DNA of 64,000 nucleotides from Eledone cirrhosa (Eukaryota), in NCBI GenBank assembly GCA_964016885.1, contig OZ024742.1, positions 322,338,001 to 322,402,000 of the forward strand, read 5' to 3'. Under the pieces are notes generated by a model. The model saw only the letters and a program-made list of their open reading frames with translations. It had not been told where the DNA came from and searched no databases. Of the stretch, positions 8,381 to 43,290 are shown in pieces. Both the position numbers and the translations under genes were made by a program. Within the stretch, counting starts at the first letter, position 1. Every line of letters starts with the position of its first letter.

Positions 8381-8599
8381 ATAAAGGCACATACTAGCAC
8401 TTTAATGCAACACTTTTTTGCCTGTTTATTTTGTTTGTTTTTTACTAACAAGATGCCAAGCATCTGTAAAAAGTATAGTTTAAAATTACATTATGTTTAA
8501 TGATTAAAGACAATATGAAAGAAAATGATTGTAATTGATTTAAATCAATGTAAAATGAAATTATTGGTCGGTGATTGCCGTCTAAAATCGAAAGAATGC

Positions 8600-9350
8600 T
8601 AGCGAGAATATATTTTATATTTTGGGGCCATCGATGGAGTTTTTACATGGTCGTTCGGTCTGTTTAGAAATAGCAACATGAATCCAATCAAATTTCTAAA
8701 ATAAAGAGGCAGATATGCATTTGTAGAGTTTAGCGTTCCACTTACACTTTTGTCAATCTGCTTGCCTCCAGAGCGCAGGCCGCTCTCAACGACATTGAAA
8801 AGGAGCCTGGATACAACTGGTTTCCCATCACAATTGGAGCCAGCAGGCCTTGACCGCCGAGACGGCAAGCGCCCCAACAGAATTACCCTCTTCCCATTCG
8901 AAGGAAGTAGAAACCTCATCTGGGACGCCACATCTGACACGTTCTCCGCCTCAAAACTTAGTCGCTTCGGCCACAATGCAGAGGAAAGGAAAACAAACAA
9001 ATACTGGGGATTGTCCGGCGGCTTCCTCTTCGAACTGGTCGCCGTCGTGACCAGGCGTACTCGGACCCCTGCCGAGCTCCTCCAGAAGATCAGAACGTCA
9101 GCAACCCACTCGAGGAAAGGGCCCCACTAAGTGGAGTGGCTGTTGCAGCTGGCCATTGTTCGCGGACGCAGCCCCATCACCACCTCGCCCTAGGCCTATC
9201 ACCCTTCCCTTTCTTCTGTTACCCTAGAGTCCTTGCTTTTCCTCTCATTTATGGCTTTCACAGTCCTTTCCTCTACTTTCCCATACAGCCAGATTTGCTC
9301 CTCCTTATCCCTTACCCATTTTCTCATTACTTAATTTTGCTTTTATCTTT
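8600..9350 (+). mobile_element. Decayed CRE-clade non-LTR retrotransposon (RLE domain + 3' UTR)
   Basis: LEPAGLDRRDGKRPNRITLFPFEGSRNLIWDAT matches the CRE RLE pattern; 3' UTR similar to 37070-37330. Confidence 0.75.
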
Positions 9351-10917: not shown

Positions 10918-11651
10918 TCCGGGGGGGGGGGGGGGGGTATTTATTTATGTGTTTATTTACCTGTCACTAGTTGGTTGTTTGTTCTATCTGTGTGTGTCTG
11001 CTTTGTTTTATTAGTTTGGTGTGTATATCATCATCATCGTTTAACGTCCATTTTCCACGTTAGCATGGGTTAGACGGTTCATGCCATTTGAGGTAAGTTG
11101 GGTCAGATGACTGTGTCTTACTCATATAGGACTGTTTCTGTCTAGGTTTCTACAGCTGGATGCCCTTCCTAACGCCAACCACATTTACAGTGTGTATATA
11201 AATATATATACACCATGTATATATATAATCAAATACGTAGATGGAAAAATTAGTTTTTAAATTATTTTTAATTCCTTATACTATCATATATAATTCTCTA
11301 TATACATTTGAATTTTGTACATATATGTTTACCTTTGCTATATACTGTGTATATATATATATATATAAAAATGAAGTATTTCCGTCGGAAAGGTACACAT
11401 ATGTATGTGTATGTAATTATATAGTAAGGTGTATTATTGGTTGTGTCAAACGGCCCAATAAATGTTTGTTAGCAATATTAAGTTCTCCCCGATTTTGTGT
11501 ATCTCCAATTCCATTCAAGGGAACAGCTAGATGATGTAAAACGGAGTATTTGTATCAAAATAAAGATCCGAAGGCATGGTATAAATTTCCAATCATATTA
11601 ATATGTGTATGTATGTATATATATATATATGTATATATATATGTGTATATT

Positions 11652-11720
<69 letters not shown>

Positions 11721-11721
11721 G

Positions 11722-11767
<46 letters not shown>

Positions 11768-11790
11768 ATATATATATATGTATATATATA

Positions 11791-11829
<39 letters not shown>

Positions 11830-11860
11830 AATATATATATATATGTATAATATATATATA

Positions 11861-12382
11861 TAAAAGTGGATGAATACTTCAACAGGCACTAAGTACTTGT
11901 AGAAATATGCAAGGTGTTTATAATAGTTGTGGTTCGATGGTACTAATTTGAGGTACCAGAACAATATAAAAAGAGCGGAGCAAGCGGTTATCAAACAATT
12001 CTCTAAATAAATTAAAAAACGATTCAAATAATCACCTGTTCTATTGCTGTTACCGACGGTTTCACCATTCCAAAAATTGGAAATCCAGAGAATTTCCAAT
12101 GGAAAGAAATGGATCTTCAGACAGCTTATTTCCATACTATAAGGTTGCCAGCCTTACAGCAAGTAAATATTTCGCTTCCTGCCCAACGCATGCGGTCAAG
12201 CCGTTAAAATGACACACACGCAAAATCAGGTCGCAGATAATAGCTGTTTATTATAAACGTGTTGATACTGCCACTAAAATTAACAACATTATTCAACGTT
12301 TTGTTCTCTACATAAGGAGAAAAATTATAAAAGTGGATGAATACTTCAACAGGCACTAAGTACTTATAGAAATATGCAAGGT

Positions 12383-12390
<8 letters not shown>
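11861..12390 (-). mobile_element. 467-bp terminally redundant element between (TA)n tracts
   Basis: ~60-bp direct repeat taaaagtggatgaatacttc...ggtgtttata starts at 11861 and 12328. Confidence 0.85.
12046..12125 (-). ncRNA. Type I hammerhead ribozyme with intact core (family B)
   Basis: Minus: gctgt CTGAAGA t-ccatt..attggaaat..atttccaat..aatgg-t GAAA ccg t cgg TA/ acagc; predicted cleavage between 12051 and 12050. Confidence 0.85.
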
Positions 12391-12457
<67 letters not shown>

Positions 12458-12685
12458 GAAACACACAGATACATGCGGACACACACATATACATGAATGC
12501 ATCCACACCCAACCGTGAGTTAAGGGTGCCAACCTCACCGATGTTGCTCAATGAATGACTGGGACAGACCAATCCGGTTGAACCAGACTGAACCAGTATC
12601 AGAGTTAAAAATACATTATGAAGAGAGAAGAAACATTTAGATATAATTAGTAATAAAATGTATCATACCCAAAGTGCTTCTAGAT

Positions 12686-12775
12686 TCCTCGACTACGTAG
12701 TTTCGTGGCATAAACAAAAACAATACATCATAAAGATATAGGATCCCTGCGAGGTCTGCCGACTTATCAAGAGGA
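12686..12775 (-). ncRNA. Type I hammerhead, U3-A8 variant (family A), unit 1
   Basis: Minus: tcctc TTGATAA gt-c-ggca [loop] tgcc-ac GAAA ctacgtag TC/ gagga. Confidence 0.8.
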
Positions 12776-13278
12776 TACCTCATTTTACTAGTCTCAAGAA
12801 CGCGTCTACACGACGTGAGAAAGAATCCCAAAAGGCGGAGGGGGAGATAGTCACGCGATATAACGGTCGAGAAACAGAGCTAAGCCTCTTATAACCCCGA
12901 AGAAAATACCACAGAGGCGGAGGGGGTATTTATATCGAATCCGTAGAAGAGGTGGTGAAGGAGACGAGAAGTATGAGTAATGGCAGCTTTCCAGCAGCCA
13001 CCACACTTCAAAGATTACTCAACCAGAGGGAGTTATTAACAATATATTTAGAAACACACAGATACATGCGGACACACACATATACATGAATGCATCCACA
13101 CCCAACCGTGAGTTAAGGGTGCCAACCTCACCGATGTTGCTCAATGAATGACTGGAACAGACCAATCCGGTTGAACCAGACTGAACCAGTATCAGAGTTA
13201 AAAATACATTATGAAGAGAGAAGAAACATTTAGATATAATTAGTAATAAAATGTATCATACCCAAAGTGCTCCTAGAT

Positions 13279-13368
13279 TCCTCGACTACGTAGTTTCGTG
13301 GCATAAACAAAAACAATACATCATAAAGATATAGAGTCCCTGCGAGGTCTGCCGACTTATCAAGAGGA
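13279..13368 (-). ncRNA. Type I hammerhead, U3-A8 variant (family A), unit 2
   Basis: Same core and stems as unit 1, 593 bp away. Confidence 0.8.
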
Positions 13369-13949
13369 TACCTCATTTTACTAGTCTCAAGAACGCGTCT
13401 ACACGACGTGAGAAAGAATCCCAAAAGGCGGAGGGGGAGATAGTCACGCGATATAACGGTCGAGAAACAGAGCTAAGCCTCTTATAACCCCGAAGAAAAT
13501 ACCACAGAGGCGGAAGGGGTATTTATATCGAATCCGTAGAAGAGGTGGTGAAGGGGGCGAGAAGTATGAGTAATGGCAGCTTTCCAGCAGCCACCACACT
13601 TCAAAGATTACTCAACCAGAGGGAGTTATTAACAATATATTTAGAAACACACAGATACATGCGGACACACACATATACATGAATGCATCCACACCCAACC
13701 GTGAGTTAAGGGTGCCAACCTCACCAATGTTGCTCAATGAATGACTGGGACAGACCAATCCGGTTGAACCAGACTGAACCAGTATCAGAGTTAAAAATAC
13801 ATTATGAAGAGAGAAGAAACATTTAGATATAATTAGTAATAAAATGTATCATACCCAAAATGCTCCTAGATTCCTCGACTACGTAGTTTCGTGGCATAAA
13901 CAAAAACAATACATCATAAAGATATAGAGTCCCTGCGAGTATATATATT

Positions 13950-14230
13950 AACCGCCAATAGATTCAAGCAGCGTCTTTACATGCATACCCATTCTTTTCG
14001 TTACCCTCTAAGAAGGAATATGACGTCACTTTCAGCTTATATCTGGAGTCTAAAAGACACTGGGAGATCCTAGCTAGGGCTAGATCGTATAACGGAATTA
14101 AAAGACCATGTGACATCTGCGCCGCTGAGGTCCTGGAAATACTCTACGCCACAGACCACATCTTAAACAAAAAATCTGAGGCAATTTCGGCTTGTAAACA
14201 TAAATTGCACAAAAGTTTCCTGTATTACAG
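13950..14230 (+). pseudogene. Penelope-like element GIY-YIG endonuclease C-terminal fragment
   Basis: FKQRLYMHTHSF..MTSLSAYIWSLK / WEILARARSYNGIKRPCDICAAE..ILNKKSEAISACKH across a frameshift. Confidence 0.75.
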
Positions 14231-15073
14231 CCCCACATTATACCCTAACGGATAGTACGATCTATACGCGGATATTTTACGTCTTGATGTGGTAGCTAAG
14301 TATATGTTATGTTTATACTATTACTTATTTGCATAGGTAAGTATATATTACCTGTATGTTTTGTGAAGGTACGTATACTTTCTCGTACGTATATTTTATT
14401 GTATATGTTATGGCGTATATTTTATATATTCTGGTACATATGCTTTTGGTTATGTGTATACGTGAGTTTTGCGTCTGTGTGAGTATGCGGGTTCGTACGT
14501 ATGTAGGGTATGTGTATTGTGTACTTCGTGTTTTGGTTGACGTACGTCTCCGAACATTTGTGTATTTACATGTAGGTATGTGTGTGCGCTTGTTATATAC
14601 GTATTTATTTATTTATATACGTTTATTTAATTGTTTGTATACACGCATACACACACACACATATTTATATGTGCGTGTATTTGTATACCTATGGCGAGTG
14701 TTTTCGCGTATGCTTGTGTATGTACGTATATGGATGCGTGTATGTATTTATTTAATTTCAATTAATTCTGTATTTTATTTACTTTATTCTTAACTCTGAA
14801 GCCGAGAATCATTCGGTTTCCTAGTTAGAATTTTAGTTTACGACTTCAGTTATACCATTTACGTGGTTTTGTCTTTGCGTGCAGTTGTTCTCCACGCTCA
14901 ACATATGACATATTATCTTCATTTTTTCCGTTCATTGCCAGAGAACGTCTCTATGAACCACCTAAGAGAATATTAGTCTACGACTTCTTTTATACCATAA
15001 ACGTGGGTTTGTCTTTGCGTGTAATTGTTTTTCACCGCTCCAAATAATGACGTATTATATTCGTTTTTTCCCG

Positions 15074-15250
15074 ATTGGCAGTATCGGTAGAGGGTCAGAC
15101 GCCATGCTTTGATGCATAGAGTTACGGTCCTTGCCATTCTGAGTTCAAATCCCGCCGAGGTTAACTTTGCCTTTCATCCTTACGGGGTCGATAAATAAAG
15201 TACCAGTAATGCACTGGGTAATTGCTGGCCTTGTGCCTAAAGTAGAAACA
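15074..15250 (+). mobile_element. tRNA-derived SINE with 20-bp target-site duplication
   Basis: B-box gagttcaaatcc; attatattcgttttttcccg at 15054-15073 and 15251-15270. Confidence 0.85.
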
Positions 15251-15536
15251 ATTATATTCGTTTTTTCCCGTTCTTTGCCAGGGAACGTTTCCACCAACCA
15301 AAGTATCGTCTTCCTGTCTTCCTCCGGTTGCAACGTTTTTTGAAATATTCACTTCTGCGTTCACAGATTGACTTTGTTAGTTTCAGAAGATCCCGTTAAG
15401 AGTGAAAGCAGCGATTCTTTGCTTAAACTTTAATCTGTTATTTTAATAAATATTTGCTCTACGGTTCTTATATATTTGATATATATTTATCCTTATCGAG
15501 CCCTCTTTGGATTTTAGTCTTCAATTTTATTATTAT

Positions 15537-18969: not shown

Positions 18970-20265
18970 ATAATTGAGCCCCAGTGTTTTTTTTATACTT
19001 ATGAATTACTTGTTGGTTCCTAAGTTATTGCATTTTCTCAGAGTTAGTCCTTCTTGTAGATTCTCGTCGACTCTCGAATGCTTGGTCAAAGTCAGACTCT
19101 CTCAAGACTATTTCGACCAGGCTGCTTGCCCAAACGGTTTGGAGGTCTCAGTCTGCGTCAATGCTCGTCACTGTCTCTTCCATGTTTTCTTTCCTCCATC
19201 CACTCTTGCTCCCCTTGGTAGGTAACATCTTCTCCTTTCCAACATGGACCAGTTCAAAAAGGGAAATGGGTGAAACTCTACTACAGTGGAGGGAGCTAGG
19301 TTTGTCAGTTCCTGATACAGATGAGGATAAACTAAAGCAAAGAGTATGGGACAATCTACGTTCGAGTGATACCTTCAACTCTCTCTTTGATCAATCTGAT
19401 CAATTTTCAACATGTCACCTACTTTCCGCCAGCACAAAATTCTCGGGGCACTGGGCTGATGCCCTGCCTATGGCCAACATTGGTGATTTCGATGAGCTCC
19501 GCATTTCCATTACAACCAGAGTGGGAGCCGATGTCGGGGGGGGGGGGACTGAGATATCGCAGTGGTAAGCCCAATGATTCTATGGGTCTTCGTGGTTTGT
19601 CTTGCCGTCTGAATGATGGTTGCTTCGCTCATCACACCGAACTAAACCTGATCATTAAGTGGGCCCTAGCTCGGGTAAATATCCCTTCAGTTCCAGAGAC
19701 AGCTGAATTATTCAGAATTGATGGGAAGAGACCAGATGATCTTACCCTTTGTCCCTGGATAAAAGGTAGATGCCTCACCTAGGACACCACAGTCAGTGAC
19801 TCTTTCTTTCCCTCCCACATCCTGGATGCTGCAGTAAATTTACTGCAGCACTCAGGATGGAATAAAATTTTAAAGTACCGGGCCTTATCAGTAAACTATT
19901 TCTTCCAGTCGTCCGAGAGGGGCTGGGTCGCTGCCAGCGAAATTCTTGTGATCGTTGGCGGCTCGCCTTACTGAGATGTCAGGTGATATTCGTGAGGGTA
20001 CTTGGTTGTTTCAGCACCTTAGCCTCGCCATCAGCCGCGGTATTGCTGCGAACTTGTTTGCTTGCCTCAAAAAGAATTAGAGGGAGGTTCCGAAGCCACT
20101 TGTGGTGTATGATCGATTGACGCACTTAGTGTTGAATTGATGTTTGTTTTTTTCGCATTGATTGTATATTTTTGTGTATTATAAGGTTCCATGAATTCTA
20201 TTTTTATGTGAAACATCATGATTGTAATGTATTTTCTTTCAAAGTTTTATTCACTGTTGTATAAA
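18970..20265 (+). mobile_element. Decayed CRE-clade non-LTR retrotransposon, 3' part
   Basis: GLSCRLNDGCFAHHTELN..PETAELFRIDGKRPDDLTLCPW and downstream WLFQHLSLAISRG; multiple frameshifts. Confidence 0.8.
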
Positions 20266-27274: not shown

Positions 27275-29857
27275 ATCATCATCATCATCAGGTTTAGCGT
27301 CCGTGTTCCACGCTTGCATGGGTTTGGACGGGGTTTTCCCACTTGAGGCAAGAGTGGTTGTCTTGCTCGCATAGGACTGTCTGGCGGGTTTTCTACAGTT
27401 GGATGCCCTTCCTAACACCAACCACATTTACAGTGTGGGACTGGGAGGTTTTTACCGTGTTGCCTACACGGCCACATTACAGCGTGGACTGTCTGGCGGG
27501 TTTTCTACAGCTGGATGCCCTTCCTAACACCAACCACATTTACAGTGTGGGGCTGGGAGGTTTTTACCGTGTTGCCTACACGGCCACATTTACAGCGTGG
27601 ACTGTGTGTTTTTTTGTCGTGACACCTACACGATCTCATTTGTTTCGGCCTGGATGTTGTGGGACCAACATAACTGTACATTGAAAGGGGTGGTGTGGAT
27701 GGGGTGGAGGTGGTGGGACGGGGGGGGGGGGGGGGGGGTTTGATAGAGATGCCTACTGACTGTAGTAGGTTTTTACTTTGTATTTAGGTAAGGCGGGTCT
27801 TCTCTATTACTGAGTACCGCCAAAGGTCTCGGTCCAGTGACATTGTCTTGGAGAGGTGTAAGCGTGTGAGGTCGGAATTTATCAGCTCGTCCCATGTTTT
27901 TCTGGGTCTGCCTACTCCGTGGCTACCGTCTATCTTTATTGCCCTGCACTTTGTTATACAGCTGTTGTCTTTCATGCGCATCACGTGACCGTACCAACGT
28001 AGCCTTCTCTCGAGTAAACAACATCTGATCCCTCTTATTTCTAATTTTTTCCTTAGTTCGTTTATGCTTTGCCGTTCACGTATATTACTATTGCACATCC
28101 AGCGGAGCATGCAAGCTTCGTTCCTCTCTAGTCTGCGTATATCCTCTGCACACAATGCCCAGGTCTCACTGCCATGCAGCATTGCTGTTCGTATGCAGGC
28201 ATCGTATAACCTGCCTTTCATTTTTAGGGAGAACCCTCTAGCGGCTAATAGTGGTATAAGCTCTCTGAACTTTTTCCATCCAGTTCTGACTCTAGCTACT
28301 GTACTTTCAGAGCACCCTCCCCCACTGCTGATTTTGTCACCCAGGTAACGGAAGCTGTCCACTATTTCTATAGAACCCTCTGCGCAGTTGAAGGAGCTAG
28401 TATTTTGTGGGCACTTGCTGCTACTTATTGCACCAGAGCACCGGCCACATGTAAAATCTATGTTCTTAGTTAGCTTACCTGTGATCCCACTACATCTTTT
28501 ATGCACCCATACTTTGCATTTGGGACATAAAATGGAGTTTCTACCTACGCCTTTCCTACACACTGAGCATGGCCATTTCCCAGATGGGACTGCCGCCATA
28601 TTTTCTTTCCTACAAACTAGAACTTTTGTCTTAGCCAGGTTAATTTTAAGGCCTTTTGATTCTAGGCCGTGCTTCCATGTTTGGAGTTTCTTCTCTAGTT
28701 CGGTCATTGATTCAGCTATGAGCGTTAGATCATCTGCGTATAGGAGTTCCCATGGGCAGCCGGTCTTGAACTCCTCTGTTATAGCCTGAAGGGCAATAAT
28801 AAATAGTAGGGGGCTAAGAACAGAGCCCTGATGGACACCAACTTTTACGCTAAACTCTTCACTATATTCGTTGTTAATTCTAACCTTACTGACTGTTTCT
28901 TTATACATGGCTTGTATAGCTCTCACAAGCCATTCGTCAACACCTAGTTTTCTAAGAGACCACCAGATAATGGAACGAGGGACTCTGTCGAAGGCTTTCT
29001 CCAAGTCGACGAAAGCTAAGTATAGGGGTTTACTTTTAGCCAGGTACTTCTCCTGTAGTTGTCGTACAATGAAAAGAGCGTCTGTGGTACTTTTGCCTGA
29101 CACAAATCCGAACTGCATTTCATCTAGATCAATTCTCTCTCTGATTAGTTGCGCTATTACTTTTTCCGTGACCTTCATGACCTGGTCGATGTGGGGGAGA
29201 CTGTCTTTCTCCCATTTGTTCTCCTCATTTAGAAGCCTTTCGTAGTGACACTTCCAAGCTACCTTCTTATCAGCGTCGGTGATGGCAAGTATGCCATCAT
29301 CGTTAAGCACACACTTCTCCCCGACAATATCACGGTTTTCCTTGACACATTGCCTGGCAATCCTGAACACCTCACGTTTTTGGTCCTCACGTTGTAGAAC
29401 ATGCTTGAACTTTCTTTCCTCTGCTTCCCTTCTTGCGAAGTACACTTGTCTCCTAGCTTCCCTCCTGGCTACCTGATAGTCTTCTCTACTTCCCCCATCC
29501 CGCCATGCTTTCCAAGCCTGCTTTTTGGCCTTAATTGACTCCTCCACCTTACTGTTCCACCACCATGTTACTCTCCTCCTACCTACAGGCCTGCTCCAGC
29601 CACAGACTTCGTCTGCCGCCGTCAGCAGGTTTGCTCTCAGGAATTCCCACTGTTCCTCTATATTATACGACTCTAATTGTTCTTCCTTACTGTCGAAAGC
29701 GTCAAGTAATATGCTTTGAAATTTATTTCTGGCTATGGGGTCCTTTAGCTTCCATATTTTTCTCCTGAGGATAGTCCTCTTCCGCTGTCTAGTACGTCTC
29801 GTCCTGACTATGAGGTCGCTAATTATCAGTCTATGTTGGGAGGTGAATTCTTCATGG

Positions 29858-33627: not shown

Positions 33628-35446
33628 ATATGTATGTATAAAATATATTTATGTATGAACATATATCTATATATATATATATCTTGTCATACTTTTGGAG
33701 GGTCATGCTGCCAATAAAAAACAACTGCACCTGTTGGGTTTCACTTCAATTTATTATTTTAGTTTCCCATTCATTTAGTTTAATAATCGAATGGTTATTC
33801 TGTAGTTGATTGTCATTAAAGCTCTTTCGTCACACATTCTGTGACCTCCTCAGTGACTACTTTAGTACTTATTTTGTCTCTCCTTTGTGGTGGTGGTGGT
33901 GGTAGTGATAATGGTAGTAGGAGTGATGGTAGTGGTAGTAGGGGTAGTGATGGTAGTAGGGATGGTGGTAGTTGTAGTGGTGGTACTGGTAGTGTTTGTG
34001 GTAGTCGTAGTGGTGGTGGTGGTAGTGGTAGTTGTAGTAGTGGTGGTAGTGATGTCTACAGGAATGATCTATCTAGATGGTATCATTTATATAGCAGGCC
34101 TGGATGGTGTTAATAATGTCTATAGTGGTACAGGCGGCGGTGTTGATAGTATCTCCAATGGTATAGGTGGTGTCAATAGAATCTAGGCGGTATCCTCTAT
34201 ATAGTATATAACACACATATATATATATATAGCAGGTCATTAATGAGGCTATGTCAGCCTTGATCAACAAATCTTCTTAACAGTTTAACTCAATAAATCT
34301 GTTTCATATTCCAGGTAAATAGCTTCAAATATTCAATGACAATCAATTCATACATAACTGCTTCATGTACATACACATACATACAGAGAGACACACATAC
34401 ATACACACACACACACATGCATACAGACACACATACATATAGAGACACATACACATACACACACGGAGATACACCCACACACACATCATCATCCTCGTTA
34501 TCATTATTTTATGTCTACTTTCCATGCTGTCATGGGTTGGACAGATCATCACAGTCCCAGAATAGATGGCTTCTCATATATTCCCTATCATCATCATCAT
34601 CATCATTTAACATCTGCTTTTCCATACTGCCATTGGCTGGGGACACACATGCACACTCCTACGTGCATCACACACACACACACACATATGTTTGTTTGTC
34701 TGTACCACTTTTCCACTCTTTGTCTGTCTATCTTTCTATCCATCCGTCTATCTATCTGCTTATTCCACAATCTGATTATGACTGTGTATCTGTGTCTATG
34801 TGTACTTATCATTTTCTTCTTGTTATTCTGGCCCTTACTAACCCTTTCATTCTGAGTTCAAATCCCACCTCCTGTTACTGGAAATATGTGTGTGCATAAT
34901 ATGACTGAAGCCTTTATTAAAATACCCAAGAAATTCCCTATAAAATGTAACCTTGTAGGATAGGCTACCCCCCATCCCTCGAGGGAGCATTGAGATAGTC
35001 CAGGTGGCTACTGGAGCTTAAGGGGGGCATTGGGAGGAGGGGGTAGAGATGATATAATAGTATATTAAATATCAAATGATACATATTATATATAAATATA
35101 GTAAAATAAAAAAATATATATTTATTTATACATAGTATATAGTATATATTATATTATTTATTATATATAAATTAACGATTTTATTTACTATATATTATGA
35201 TTTGCGTAAAGGCAGGTCTCTTGGGAAATAGGGGTGGGAGCCGCTTAGGGTATTACGTGGCCGCGGGGGGGGGGGGGGGGGGGCAAAGTTTGAGAACCTC
35301 TGTTGTAGGAGGTTAGCTGATCCTCAGCATGTATGAGCTCTAACAACATAGATATGTTTGTGTGATATGACTGAGGTCCCTATCATTAAAAGATTCAAGA
35401 AACCTCCTATGTTGGCTAAACAACAGGTGTGAGCTGTAATAACAAC

Positions 35447-35990
35447 AACAAAAAGCACCCAGCTCACACTGTAAAGTGGTTGTGTCGGTGTCACAACAAA
35501 AAGCACCCAGTCCACACTGTAAAGTGGTTGTGTCGGTGTCACAACAAAAAGCACCCAGTCCACACTGTAAAGTGGTTGTGTGGGTGTCACGACAAAAAGT
35601 ACCCAGTCCACACTGTAAAGTGGTTGTGTTGGTGTCACGACAAAAAGCACCCAGCCCACATTGTAAAGTGGTTGTGTTGGTGTCACGACAAAAAGCACCC
35701 AGTACACACTGTAAAGTGGTTGTGTAGGTGTCACGACAAAAAGCACCCAGTCCACACTGTAAAGTGGTTGTGTTGGTGTCACAACAAAAAGTACCCAGCC
35801 CACACTGTAAAGTGGTTGTGTAGGTGTCACAACAAAAAGCACCCAGCCCACACTGTAAAGTGGTTGTGTTGGTGTCACAACAAAAAGTACCCAGCCCACA
35901 CTGTAAAGTGGTTGTGTTGGTGTCATGACAAAAAGCACCCAGCCCACACTGTAAAGTGGTTGCGTTGGTGTGACAACATAAAGCACTCAG
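35447..35990 (+). repeat. 48-bp minisatellite (~11 copies) inside an RTE-type 3' tail
   Basis: acaaaaagcacccagtccacactgtaaagtggttgtgtyggtgtcac; followed by gaagggcatccagc...gttaaacggtgatgatg. Confidence 0.9.
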
Positions 35991-39779: not shown

Positions 39780-40195
39780 ATCATCATTATCATCATCGTT
39801 TTACGTCCATTTCTCCACGCTGACATGGGTTAGACGAGTTGTTCTGTTGTTGGCTATTTTAGGTCAGGTGACCATATCTTGCACATACAGAATTGATTTT
39901 TGCCTGGTTTCTACAGCTGGATGCCCTTCCTAACGCCAACCTCATTTACAGTAAGTACTGGGTGCTTTCTGTCATGACGCCTACATAACCACCTTACAGT
40001 GTTGACTGGGTGGTTTTGTCATGGTATCTACACAACCACTTTACAGTGTTGACTGGGTGCTTTTTGTTGTGACACCTACACAACCACTTTACAATGTGGA
40101 CTGGGTGGTTTTGTTGTGACACCTACACAACCACTTTACAGTGTTGACTGGGTGCTTTTTACCATGTCACCATCATGACCACCACTTTACTGTGT
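39780..40195 (-). mobile_element. RTE-type 3' tail with 48-bp repeats
   Basis: ctggatgcccttcctaacgccaac motif; same unit as 35447, opposite strand. Confidence 0.75.
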
Positions 40196-42129: not shown

Positions 42130-43290
42130 ATCATCATCATCATCAACGTTTAACGTCCGTGTTCCACGCTTGCATGGGTTTGGACGGGGGTTTTCCCACT
42201 TGAGGCAAGAGTGATTGTCTTGCTCGCATAGGACTGTCTAGCGGGTTTTCTACAGCTGGATGCCCTTCCTAACACCAACCACATTTACAGTGTGGGGCTG
42301 GGAGGTTTTTACCGTGTTGCCTACATGGCCACATTACAGCGTGGACTGTCTGGCGGTTTTCTACAGCTGGATGCCCTTCCTAACACCAACCACATTTACA
42401 GTGTGGGGCTGGGAGGTTTTTACCGTGTTGCCTACACGACCACATTACAGCGTGGACTGTCTGGCGGTTTTCTACAGCTGGATGCCCTTCCTAACACCAA
42501 CCACATTTACAGTGTGGGGCTGGGAGGTTTTTACCGTGTTGCCTACACGGCCACATTACAGCGTGGACTGTGTGTTTTTTGTCGTGACACCTACACGATC
42601 TCATTTGTTTCGGCCTGGATGTTGTGACACCAACATAACTTTACATTGAAAGGGGCGTGTGGACGGGGTGGGGGTGGTGGGACAGGGGTGTATTTTGTTA
42701 GAGATGCCTACTGACTGTAGTAGGTTTTAATTTGTATTTAGGTAAAGCGGGTCTTCTCTATTACTGAGTACCGCCAAAGGTCTCGGTCCAGTGACATTGT
42801 CTTGGAGAGGTGTAAGTGTGTGAGGTCGGAATTTATCAGCTCGTCCCAGGTTTTTCTGGGTCTGCCTATTCCGTGGCTACCGTCTATCTTTATTGCCCTG
42901 CACTTTGTTATACAGCTATCGTCTTTCATGCGCATCACGTGACCATACCAATGTAGCCTTCTCTCGAGTAAACAACATCTGATCCCTCTTATTTCTAATT
43001 TTTTCCTTAGTTCGTTTATGCTTTGCCGTTCACGTATATTACTATTACACATCCAGCGGAGCATGCAAGCTTCGTTCCTCTCTAGTCTGCGTATATCCTC
43101 TGCACACAATGCCCAGGTCTCACTGCCATGCAACATTGCTGTTCGTATGCAGGCATATACAACCTGCCTTTCATTTTTAGGGAGAACCCTTTAGTGGCTA
43201 ATAGTGGTATAAGCTCTCTGAACTTTTTCCATCCAGTTCTGACTCTAGCTACTGTACTTTCAGAGCACCCTCCCCCACTGCTGATTTTGT
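42130..43290 (-). mobile_element. 5'-truncated RTE LINE, same family as 27275
   Basis: ORF 42738-43136 nearly identical to the RTE C-terminus; three ~112-bp UTR units. Confidence 0.92.

Follow-up and report, generated by a model that had tools for sequence, protein, structure and literature searches.

Known systems

Circle templating by a PLE is the cycle proposed for metazoan non-LTR retrozymes, and in the portions of the literature consulted (PMC7229834; 10.64898/2026.07.22.740005) this reverse transcription of retrozyme circles is put forward but unshown; one of nine Xenopus retrozyme dimers was cleaved in vitro (10.64898/2026.07.22.740005). According to the consulted part of PMC8557442, PLEs leave characteristic marks, namely 3' ends that are fixed, a tail on one side, arms that are truncated and inverted, and insertion into microsatellites, and the CX2-5CxxC linker is tied to Neptune. 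The anole PLE PAc (Poseidon) initiates internally at two sites in vitro, with both target strands cut and extended, and it uses uncut RNA for which the hammerhead is not needed; that work leaves the role of the hammerhead open (PMC11167929). The U3-A8 core is a natural one that is active in vitro (PMC3088659), and about 1,300 U3-A8 hammerhead matches were reported from Schistosoma mansoni, found via the Cercyon PLE (PMC4209133).

Neither the element class nor the U3-A8 core is new, and the value of the family described here lies in its insertion footprints. As a young and abundant family it provides countable predictions, namely two start sites of which each DNA end uses one, copies that cross the cut, and edits shared between units. 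In the main texts of the openly accessible literature searched, we found no description of this family or of one-site-per-arm pairing.

A 593-bp tandem array in Eledone cirrhosa

The window is the whole 64,000-nucleotide stretch of Eledone cirrhosa DNA that was analysed. It contains a tandem with a 593-bp period, whose RNA sense is predicted to be the minus strand. Unit positions are numbered from window position 13204, and the main features are as follows.

12449..13939, minus strand: whole insertion, 2.51 units of 593 bp in one arm (repeat analysis, unit alignment)
12386..12454, no strand: (TA)n run targeted by the insertion, where the arm begins; presumed priming end (repeat analysis)
12449..12461, plus strand: start site B, ATATATTTAGAAA, unit position ~432, repeated at 13042 and 13635; the insertion begins here
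13204..13213, plus strand: ATACATTATG, start site A at unit position 1, with further copies at 12611 and 13797; lies inside the array in the window copy
12691..13283, minus strand: predicted 593-nt monomer between two predicted cuts (folding against shuffles)
13872..13939, minus strand: third hammerhead, 3' half only; arm end at unit position 143, a putative 5' truncation
13424..13439, no strand: conserved CTCCCCCTCCGCC box, second copy at about 13506-13521 (subfamily comparison)

The aligned units differ at 10 positions across ~900 compared bases, and the only frame lying wholly within the non-coding unit is an 80-codon stop-to-stop frame. An earlier note on this DNA had described 2.5 near-identical non-coding units, which agrees with these results, and had placed them between TA repeats, which holds fully only on the left, where the (TA)n run blurs the array edge; on the right, only TATATATAT adjoins position 13939. 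The one-armed array, starting at site B and stopping at unit position 143, represents a single, recent insertion from a non-coding tandem family that is dispersed in the genome. Linear folding of the predicted monomer gave -172.4 kcal/mol, with a z of -3.8 relative to 100 shuffles, and circular folding gave -168 for the minus strand and -120 for the plus strand. Two conserved CCCCCTCCGCC boxes lie at 13424-13439 and 13496-13521, one of them adjoining TATAAATA on the minus strand, and with TATAAATA they are a possible internal promoter; the CTCCCCCTCCGCC box is one that we take to be GC-box-like.

Directly to the left of the array, at 11856-12390, lies a second dispersed tandem element with a ~468-bp unit (1.13 units), whose full-length matches are 91-98% identical (40 of 1,718 candidates scored) and whose arms begin at unit positions 1 and 104. 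It carries a minus-strand hammerhead of the canonical C3-G8 type (CUGAAGA at 12120, GAAA-CCGUCGG-UA/ACAGC), with a predicted cut near 12051. Elsewhere in the window, decayed-looking frames at 8599-9130 and 19005-20120 contain GKRP(D/N)xxTLxP motifs, which we take to be typical of restriction-like endonucleases of non-LTR retrotransposons, and related tandem repeats of 111/112 bp and 47/48 bp are found at 27374-27605 and 42231-42571, at 35445-35990 and at 39957-40183.

The U3-A8 hammerhead

On the minus strand, the two complete motifs read TCCTC-UUGAUAA-GUcGGCA...UGCCAC-GAAA-CUACGUAG-UC/GAGGA (13279-13368 and 12686-12775), with UCCUC/GAGGA as stem I, GU(c)GGCA/UGCCAC as stem II, the palindromic ACUACGUAGU in stem III and GUC as the cleavage triplet.

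13279..13368, minus strand: type I hammerhead, upstream copy, predicted cut 13284/13283 (motif comparison, folding)
13364-13368/13279-13283, minus strand: its stem I
13357-13363, minus strand: its core UUGAUAA, with U3 at 13363 and A8 at 13358
13350-13356/13298-13303, minus strand: its stem II
13294-13297, minus strand: its GAAA, followed by palindromic stem III
13307..13342, minus strand: predicted long hairpin prolonging stem II; A-U/G-U exchanges tolerated across subfamilies
13343..13375, minus strand: predicted 6-bp pseudoknot, UGAGGU (13370-13375) with loop II ACCUCG (13343-13348); putative, one-sided variation only
12686..12775, minus strand: downstream copy of the type I hammerhead, with its predicted cut at 12691/12690
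12750-12782, minus strand: the same predicted pseudoknot, downstream copy

The earlier note's minus-strand hammerhead and both of its predicted cuts are recovered at these positions, and its claim of one hammerhead per full unit holds for the two complete motifs; the third, partial unit contains the 3' half only. The general pattern Y3-U-G-A-N-R8-A, GAAA and UH with a 3-8 pair is present as UUGAUAA...GAAA...UC, and UUGAUAA is kept in 140 of 145 segments. Stems I, II and III, of 5, 6 and 3-4 bp with stem I open, have 96.7-100% of cells paired on 56 rows. A type III reading, with the hairpin GAGG-UAU-CCUC as stem I, was dropped because it would need a 4-nt insertion after the cleavage triplet. 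As the earlier note had foreseen, a strict CUGANGA search would miss the motif: CUGANGA does not occur inside the array, and an Rfam scan of 11000-15500 gave no hammerhead family at E<=10.

Two further expectations of that note were not supported. It had interpreted U3-A8 as a compensatory double change, but the genome search gave 0 matches to a C3-G8 version of the family core, so there is no covariation at the 3-8 pair within the family; the core is fixed, is a known natural one and is shared with local autonomous PLEs. It had also looked to covariation in stems I-III. What we observed was conservation, with 93% of cells pairing on 56 rows and near-invariant stems, and two-sided changes in 2 of 37 pairs, a level reached by 282 of 500 shuffles, do not exceed chance.

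Two features go beyond the earlier note. Stem II is prolonged by the 15-pair hairpin, and the UGAGGU just 5' of stem I complements loop II ACCUCR over 6 bp (94% paired). This putative pseudoknot has U-G/U-A/C-G at one end, with no compensatory pair; pseudoknots in such a hammerhead role are already described (PMC3088659). The earlier note had taken the palindromic stem III to favour dimeric cleavage. A dimer route is possible, but folding does not require it, as the hammerhead-constrained monomer fold (-25.3 kcal/mol) is 1.1 kcal/mol above the local minimum (-26.4 kcal/mol).

Genome-wide conservation of the family

The searched genome (G000) comprises 3.0 Gb. A DNA search gave 127 matches on many contigs, the full-length ones 95-100% identical (40 of 2,074 candidates scored). 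Exact motif counts were 1,801 for a 28-mer and 7,444 for the 24-base hammerhead 3' half, both spread over many chromosomes, and 160 for an older-subfamily motif. Subfamilies range down to ~80% identity. When majority sequences were compared, three further subfamilies departed from the window type at 4%, 7% and 16% of positions, none of which lay in the core or stems I-III. The earlier note's expectation of dispersed relatives with conserved core and stems is thereby borne out, with thousands of copies and four subfamilies compared.

Across these four subfamilies the hammerhead halves are the longest invariant runs, and the longest of all, 29 nt, is in the ribozyme 5' half, which was selected by no search; only 4 of 504 27-nt windows are without old-versus-young differences, and 3 of them lie in this 5' half. 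Among 85 loci, variants common to at least four loci occur at 70 of 577 positions and at 0 of 44 ribozyme positions, a difference (p 0.003) that is inflated because most loci were chosen by the 3'-half motif, and the unselected 5' half was relied on instead. Rare changes strike the ribozyme at the usual rate (0.012 versus 0.014). This pattern fits selection on a mobile RNA, and judging from its retention across thousands of copies and a ~80%-identical subfamily, the motif is not a chance match.

Sister-subfamily letters were also seen at very high depth in sequencing run X1, which may be from the same species and is then not independent. Runs X4 and X8 have the same letters at a depth of 8-12, most simply from cross-contamination, and the match in run X9 is to the simple-repeat part only; none of these matches is taken as a sign of horizontal transfer.

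Arm starts and insertion anatomy

Insertion ends were mapped at 121 of the 122 position-ordered loci, those whose two ends were both visible. Almost all plus-strand arm starts (177 of 187) fall at two internal AT-rich sites, site A at unit position 1-10 (92 of 187) and site B at unit position 423-440 (85 of 187). These are 80 and 242 nt after the predicted cut, and neither is the cut itself. The flank is TA-rich at 161 of the 187 starts, and the far ends of single arms are scattered (n=55). Freely permuted ends, which the earlier note had proposed to search for genome-wide, were not what we observed, as the arms begin at two fixed internal sites instead.

Two opposed arms are present at 66 of 121 loci, and 54 of the 58 classifiable arm pairs have one A and one B start (p 3e-12; 8 pairs set aside). 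The median locus length is 670-1,030 bp, and arrays reach ~8 units. The insertions thus show PLE-type features, namely fixed 3' ends, variable 5' truncation, an inverted arm and a microsatellite target.

Family copies often lie within the (TA)n of autonomous PLE ends or UTRs (L126:2285-3264, L184 and L023), and TA-targeting elements therefore stack on one another. Compound loci (L012, L159, L201 and L217) include arrays extending past 3 kb; L012 consists of two adjoining insertions of different haplotype, L159 is a duplicated two-armed insertion, and L182 spans ~4.6 kb.

Candidate partner PLEs

A search for GIY-YIG gave 10,596 candidates, from which 150 were scored and 50 loci fetched. The genome holds elements with RT, CX4CxxC and GIY-YIG that end on (TA)n with U3-A8 hammerheads. 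In 9 of 11 copies of the L131 family the element ends on (TA)n, 76 or 142-144 nt downstream of its hammerhead cut, and L142 has one end of each of these two types; the corresponding distances in the 593-bp unit are 80 and 242 nt. The pattern UUGANAA...GAAA-CCGG-UH is present in 3 of 7 representative PLE 3' ends, and two further ends have UUGAAAA with a degenerate GAAA (by eye). Because U3-A8 is found in the ends of local autonomous PLEs, the core of the 593-bp family was probably inherited from a PLE and is not new.

Several Neptune-type PLE families have U3-A8 hammerheads with a CCGG loop III, as at the 3' ends of L131, L102, L148, L143 and L118, and two show GCAA or UCAA in place of GAAA. 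No element-level DNA match was found in the 50 GIY-YIG loci beyond the copy nested in L126, and DNA similarity to the 7 PLE 3' ends was not significant (z at most 2.1); in these comparisons the 593-bp family and the local autonomous PLEs have only the core type and layout in common.

Proposed cycle and its alternatives

We consider it probable that the family is a non-autonomous PLE whose minus-strand RNA self-cleaves at the conserved U3-A8 hammerhead and closes into a 593-nt circle, which a Neptune-type PLE protein would then write into (TA)n DNA. The GIY-YIG nuclease would cut both strands of the TA run, and a protein dimer on one RNA would prime cDNA from each DNA end, from site A at one and from site B at the other. 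Each polymerase may circle the template and stop at random, after which the two cDNAs would join, or one arm would be lost, as in the window copy. Near-intact candidate enzymes are present in the same genome, which puts a direct test of the circle step, and of how PLE tails and inversions arise, within reach.

The template was evaluated from sequence across the cut. Genome-wide, 6,603 of 6,667 copies (99%) continue across the cut with the expected base, whereas a cut linear monomer would allow only 80 or 242 nt of cDNA from sites A and B. This read-through, together with rare variants common to the units within a locus, indicates copying from either a circle or an uncut multimer and not from a cut linear monomer, in line with the earlier note. 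Among the 64 non-continuing copies, 18 of 30 inspected have true junctions at the cut, corresponding to ~0.58% of copies. The control values are 0.42% for the base immediately preceding the cut (16 of 30 inspected from 53), ~0.2% for the position four bases before it (14 of 28, taking the denominator as about 6,500) and no more than 0.18% for the position 18 bases after it (9 of 30 inspected from 44; five resemble old-subfamily sequence). The slight excess is a hint that cutting had occurred at this point in some templates; it is judged against three control positions, one of them nearly as high. A previous count of 0 of 55 arm ends near the cut was biased and is superseded by these genome-wide counts.

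Read-through and internal priming fit equally well if the same non-autonomous PLE is copied from long uncut linear multimers, or by template jumping, with the hammerhead used elsewhere, for example in trimming read-through or setting RNA level. We regard this as unlikely, yet as the most serious alternative: an uncut long linear transcript crosses the cut too, transposition by the anole PLE in vitro proceeds from uncut RNA (PMC11167929), and arrays of up to ~8 units are possible sources. The non-integer copy number, which the earlier note had read as a sign of rolling reverse transcription, fits a circle, but by itself it would follow from 5' truncation of a linear multimer too. Against linear multimers, most loci are short, at the median given above, so that truncation alone would shrink the arrays in each generation, and within-locus differences are mostly private (678 of 901). 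Units and arms within a locus differ by ~1.0%, compared with 4.3% between loci; gene conversion or local duplication could add to this within-locus homogeneity.

Rare A-to-G variants that all tandem units share, and that are not unit-specific, also argue against linear multimers. Across 220 loci, plus-strand T>C (hammerhead-strand A>G) makes up 10 of 46 rare variants present in all tandem units and 12 of 349 single-unit variants (Fisher 4e-5 for all-unit versus single-unit). For the shared variants, the strand comparison gives weak evidence (14 versus 8, p 0.026; tandem only 10 versus 6, p 0.07), and single-unit changes lean in the opposite direction (50 A>G versus 12 T>C, p 0.002). An all-unit A-to-G excess is what a single edited RNA unit, serving as template for all the units, would leave behind, and the single-unit bias is as might arise from G-opposite-U errors in plus-strand cDNA, a hint of a reverse-transcriptase-like bias. 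Taken together, the template data favour one monomer copied repeatedly, as on a circle, over a linear multimer.

A more specific form of the circle proposal, which we advance tentatively and with somewhat less than even confidence, is that a PLE dimer copies one ribozyme-made, A-to-I-edited circle from two fixed sites into both ends of the (TA)n break, with the pseudoknot enabling monomer cleavage. If true, it would explain the one-sided tail and inverted arms of PLEs and would show the long-proposed circle-templated step.

Far less probable is insertion of monomers or short copies by PLE machinery with later expansion of the arrays at the locus through slippage or unequal crossing-over, a route put forward in 10.64898/2026.07.22.740005. 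Such growth accounts for one haplotype per locus, and a few loci (L159 among them) are visibly duplicated later. However, the opposed arms of a locus are both multimeric and of one haplotype (0.95% divergence), with fixed starts and scattered far ends, and copies of less than one unit or of 1.x units cross the cut as well. We give almost no credence to a DNA-mobilised or satellite repeat with the hammerhead as a dead relic: Rfam gave no match, but the ribozyme halves are the best-kept parts over ~16-20% divergence, the ends bear PLE signatures, and strand-asymmetric changes point to an RNA step.

Comparison with known systems

By sequence definition (PMC7229834) the family is a new member of the animal non-LTR retrozymes, and its insertion signature is that of a non-autonomous PLE. 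Its tandem non-coding units have one type I hammerhead each (two complete in the window), and it is present in many dispersed copies in a genome that contains PLEs as well. The retrozyme/PLE-type element suggested by the earlier note is upheld by the conserved hammerhead, the thousands of relatives and the PLE-type ends. A plant LTR retrozyme (type III hammerhead in LTRs, PBS/PPT, 4-bp TSD) was rejected, as the type I order, tandem units and (TA)n ends are found instead.

Compared with metazoan non-LTR retrozymes as covered in the available text of PMC7229834 and 10.64898/2026.07.22.740005, the family is alike in its non-coding tandems, one type I hammerhead per unit, GC below 50%, thousands of dispersed copies and co-existing PLEs. 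Its unit of 593 nt contrasts with 170-400 nt (PMC7229834) and 51-972 (10.64898/2026.07.22.740005), and it differs in its U3-A8 core, long stem II and a predicted pseudoknot replacing the loop 1-loop 2 contact (PMC7229834). It is further set apart from retrozymes as described in those texts in that it targets (TA)n, starts at two fixed sites and forms two-armed insertions (PMC7229834; 10.64898/2026.07.22.740005).

The Cercyon minimal hammerheads of Schistosoma mansoni have the same core swap, G10.1-C11.1 and a palindromic loop III, but these motifs are mostly single and heterogeneous in the consulted account, whereas the 593-bp family has a full stem III in a near-invariant, tandem non-coding unit (PMC4209133). 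With the EN+ PLEs Neptune, Naiad and Chlamys, including the non-autonomous MRC1, the family shares partial tandems, an inverted 5'-truncated arm, a tail at one end and microsatellite targets; unlike them, it has a tail-equivalent of 162 nt versus 30-40 and no ORF (PMC8557442, consulted part). PAc is similar in its two internal RT starts downstream of the hammerhead, the predicted dimer and AT-rich targets (PMC11167929). However, the PAc starts are reported as non-homologous to the target and without strand difference (PMC11167929), whereas here both starts are AUAU-like beside (TA)n, and in two-armed insertions each arm nearly always has its own site.
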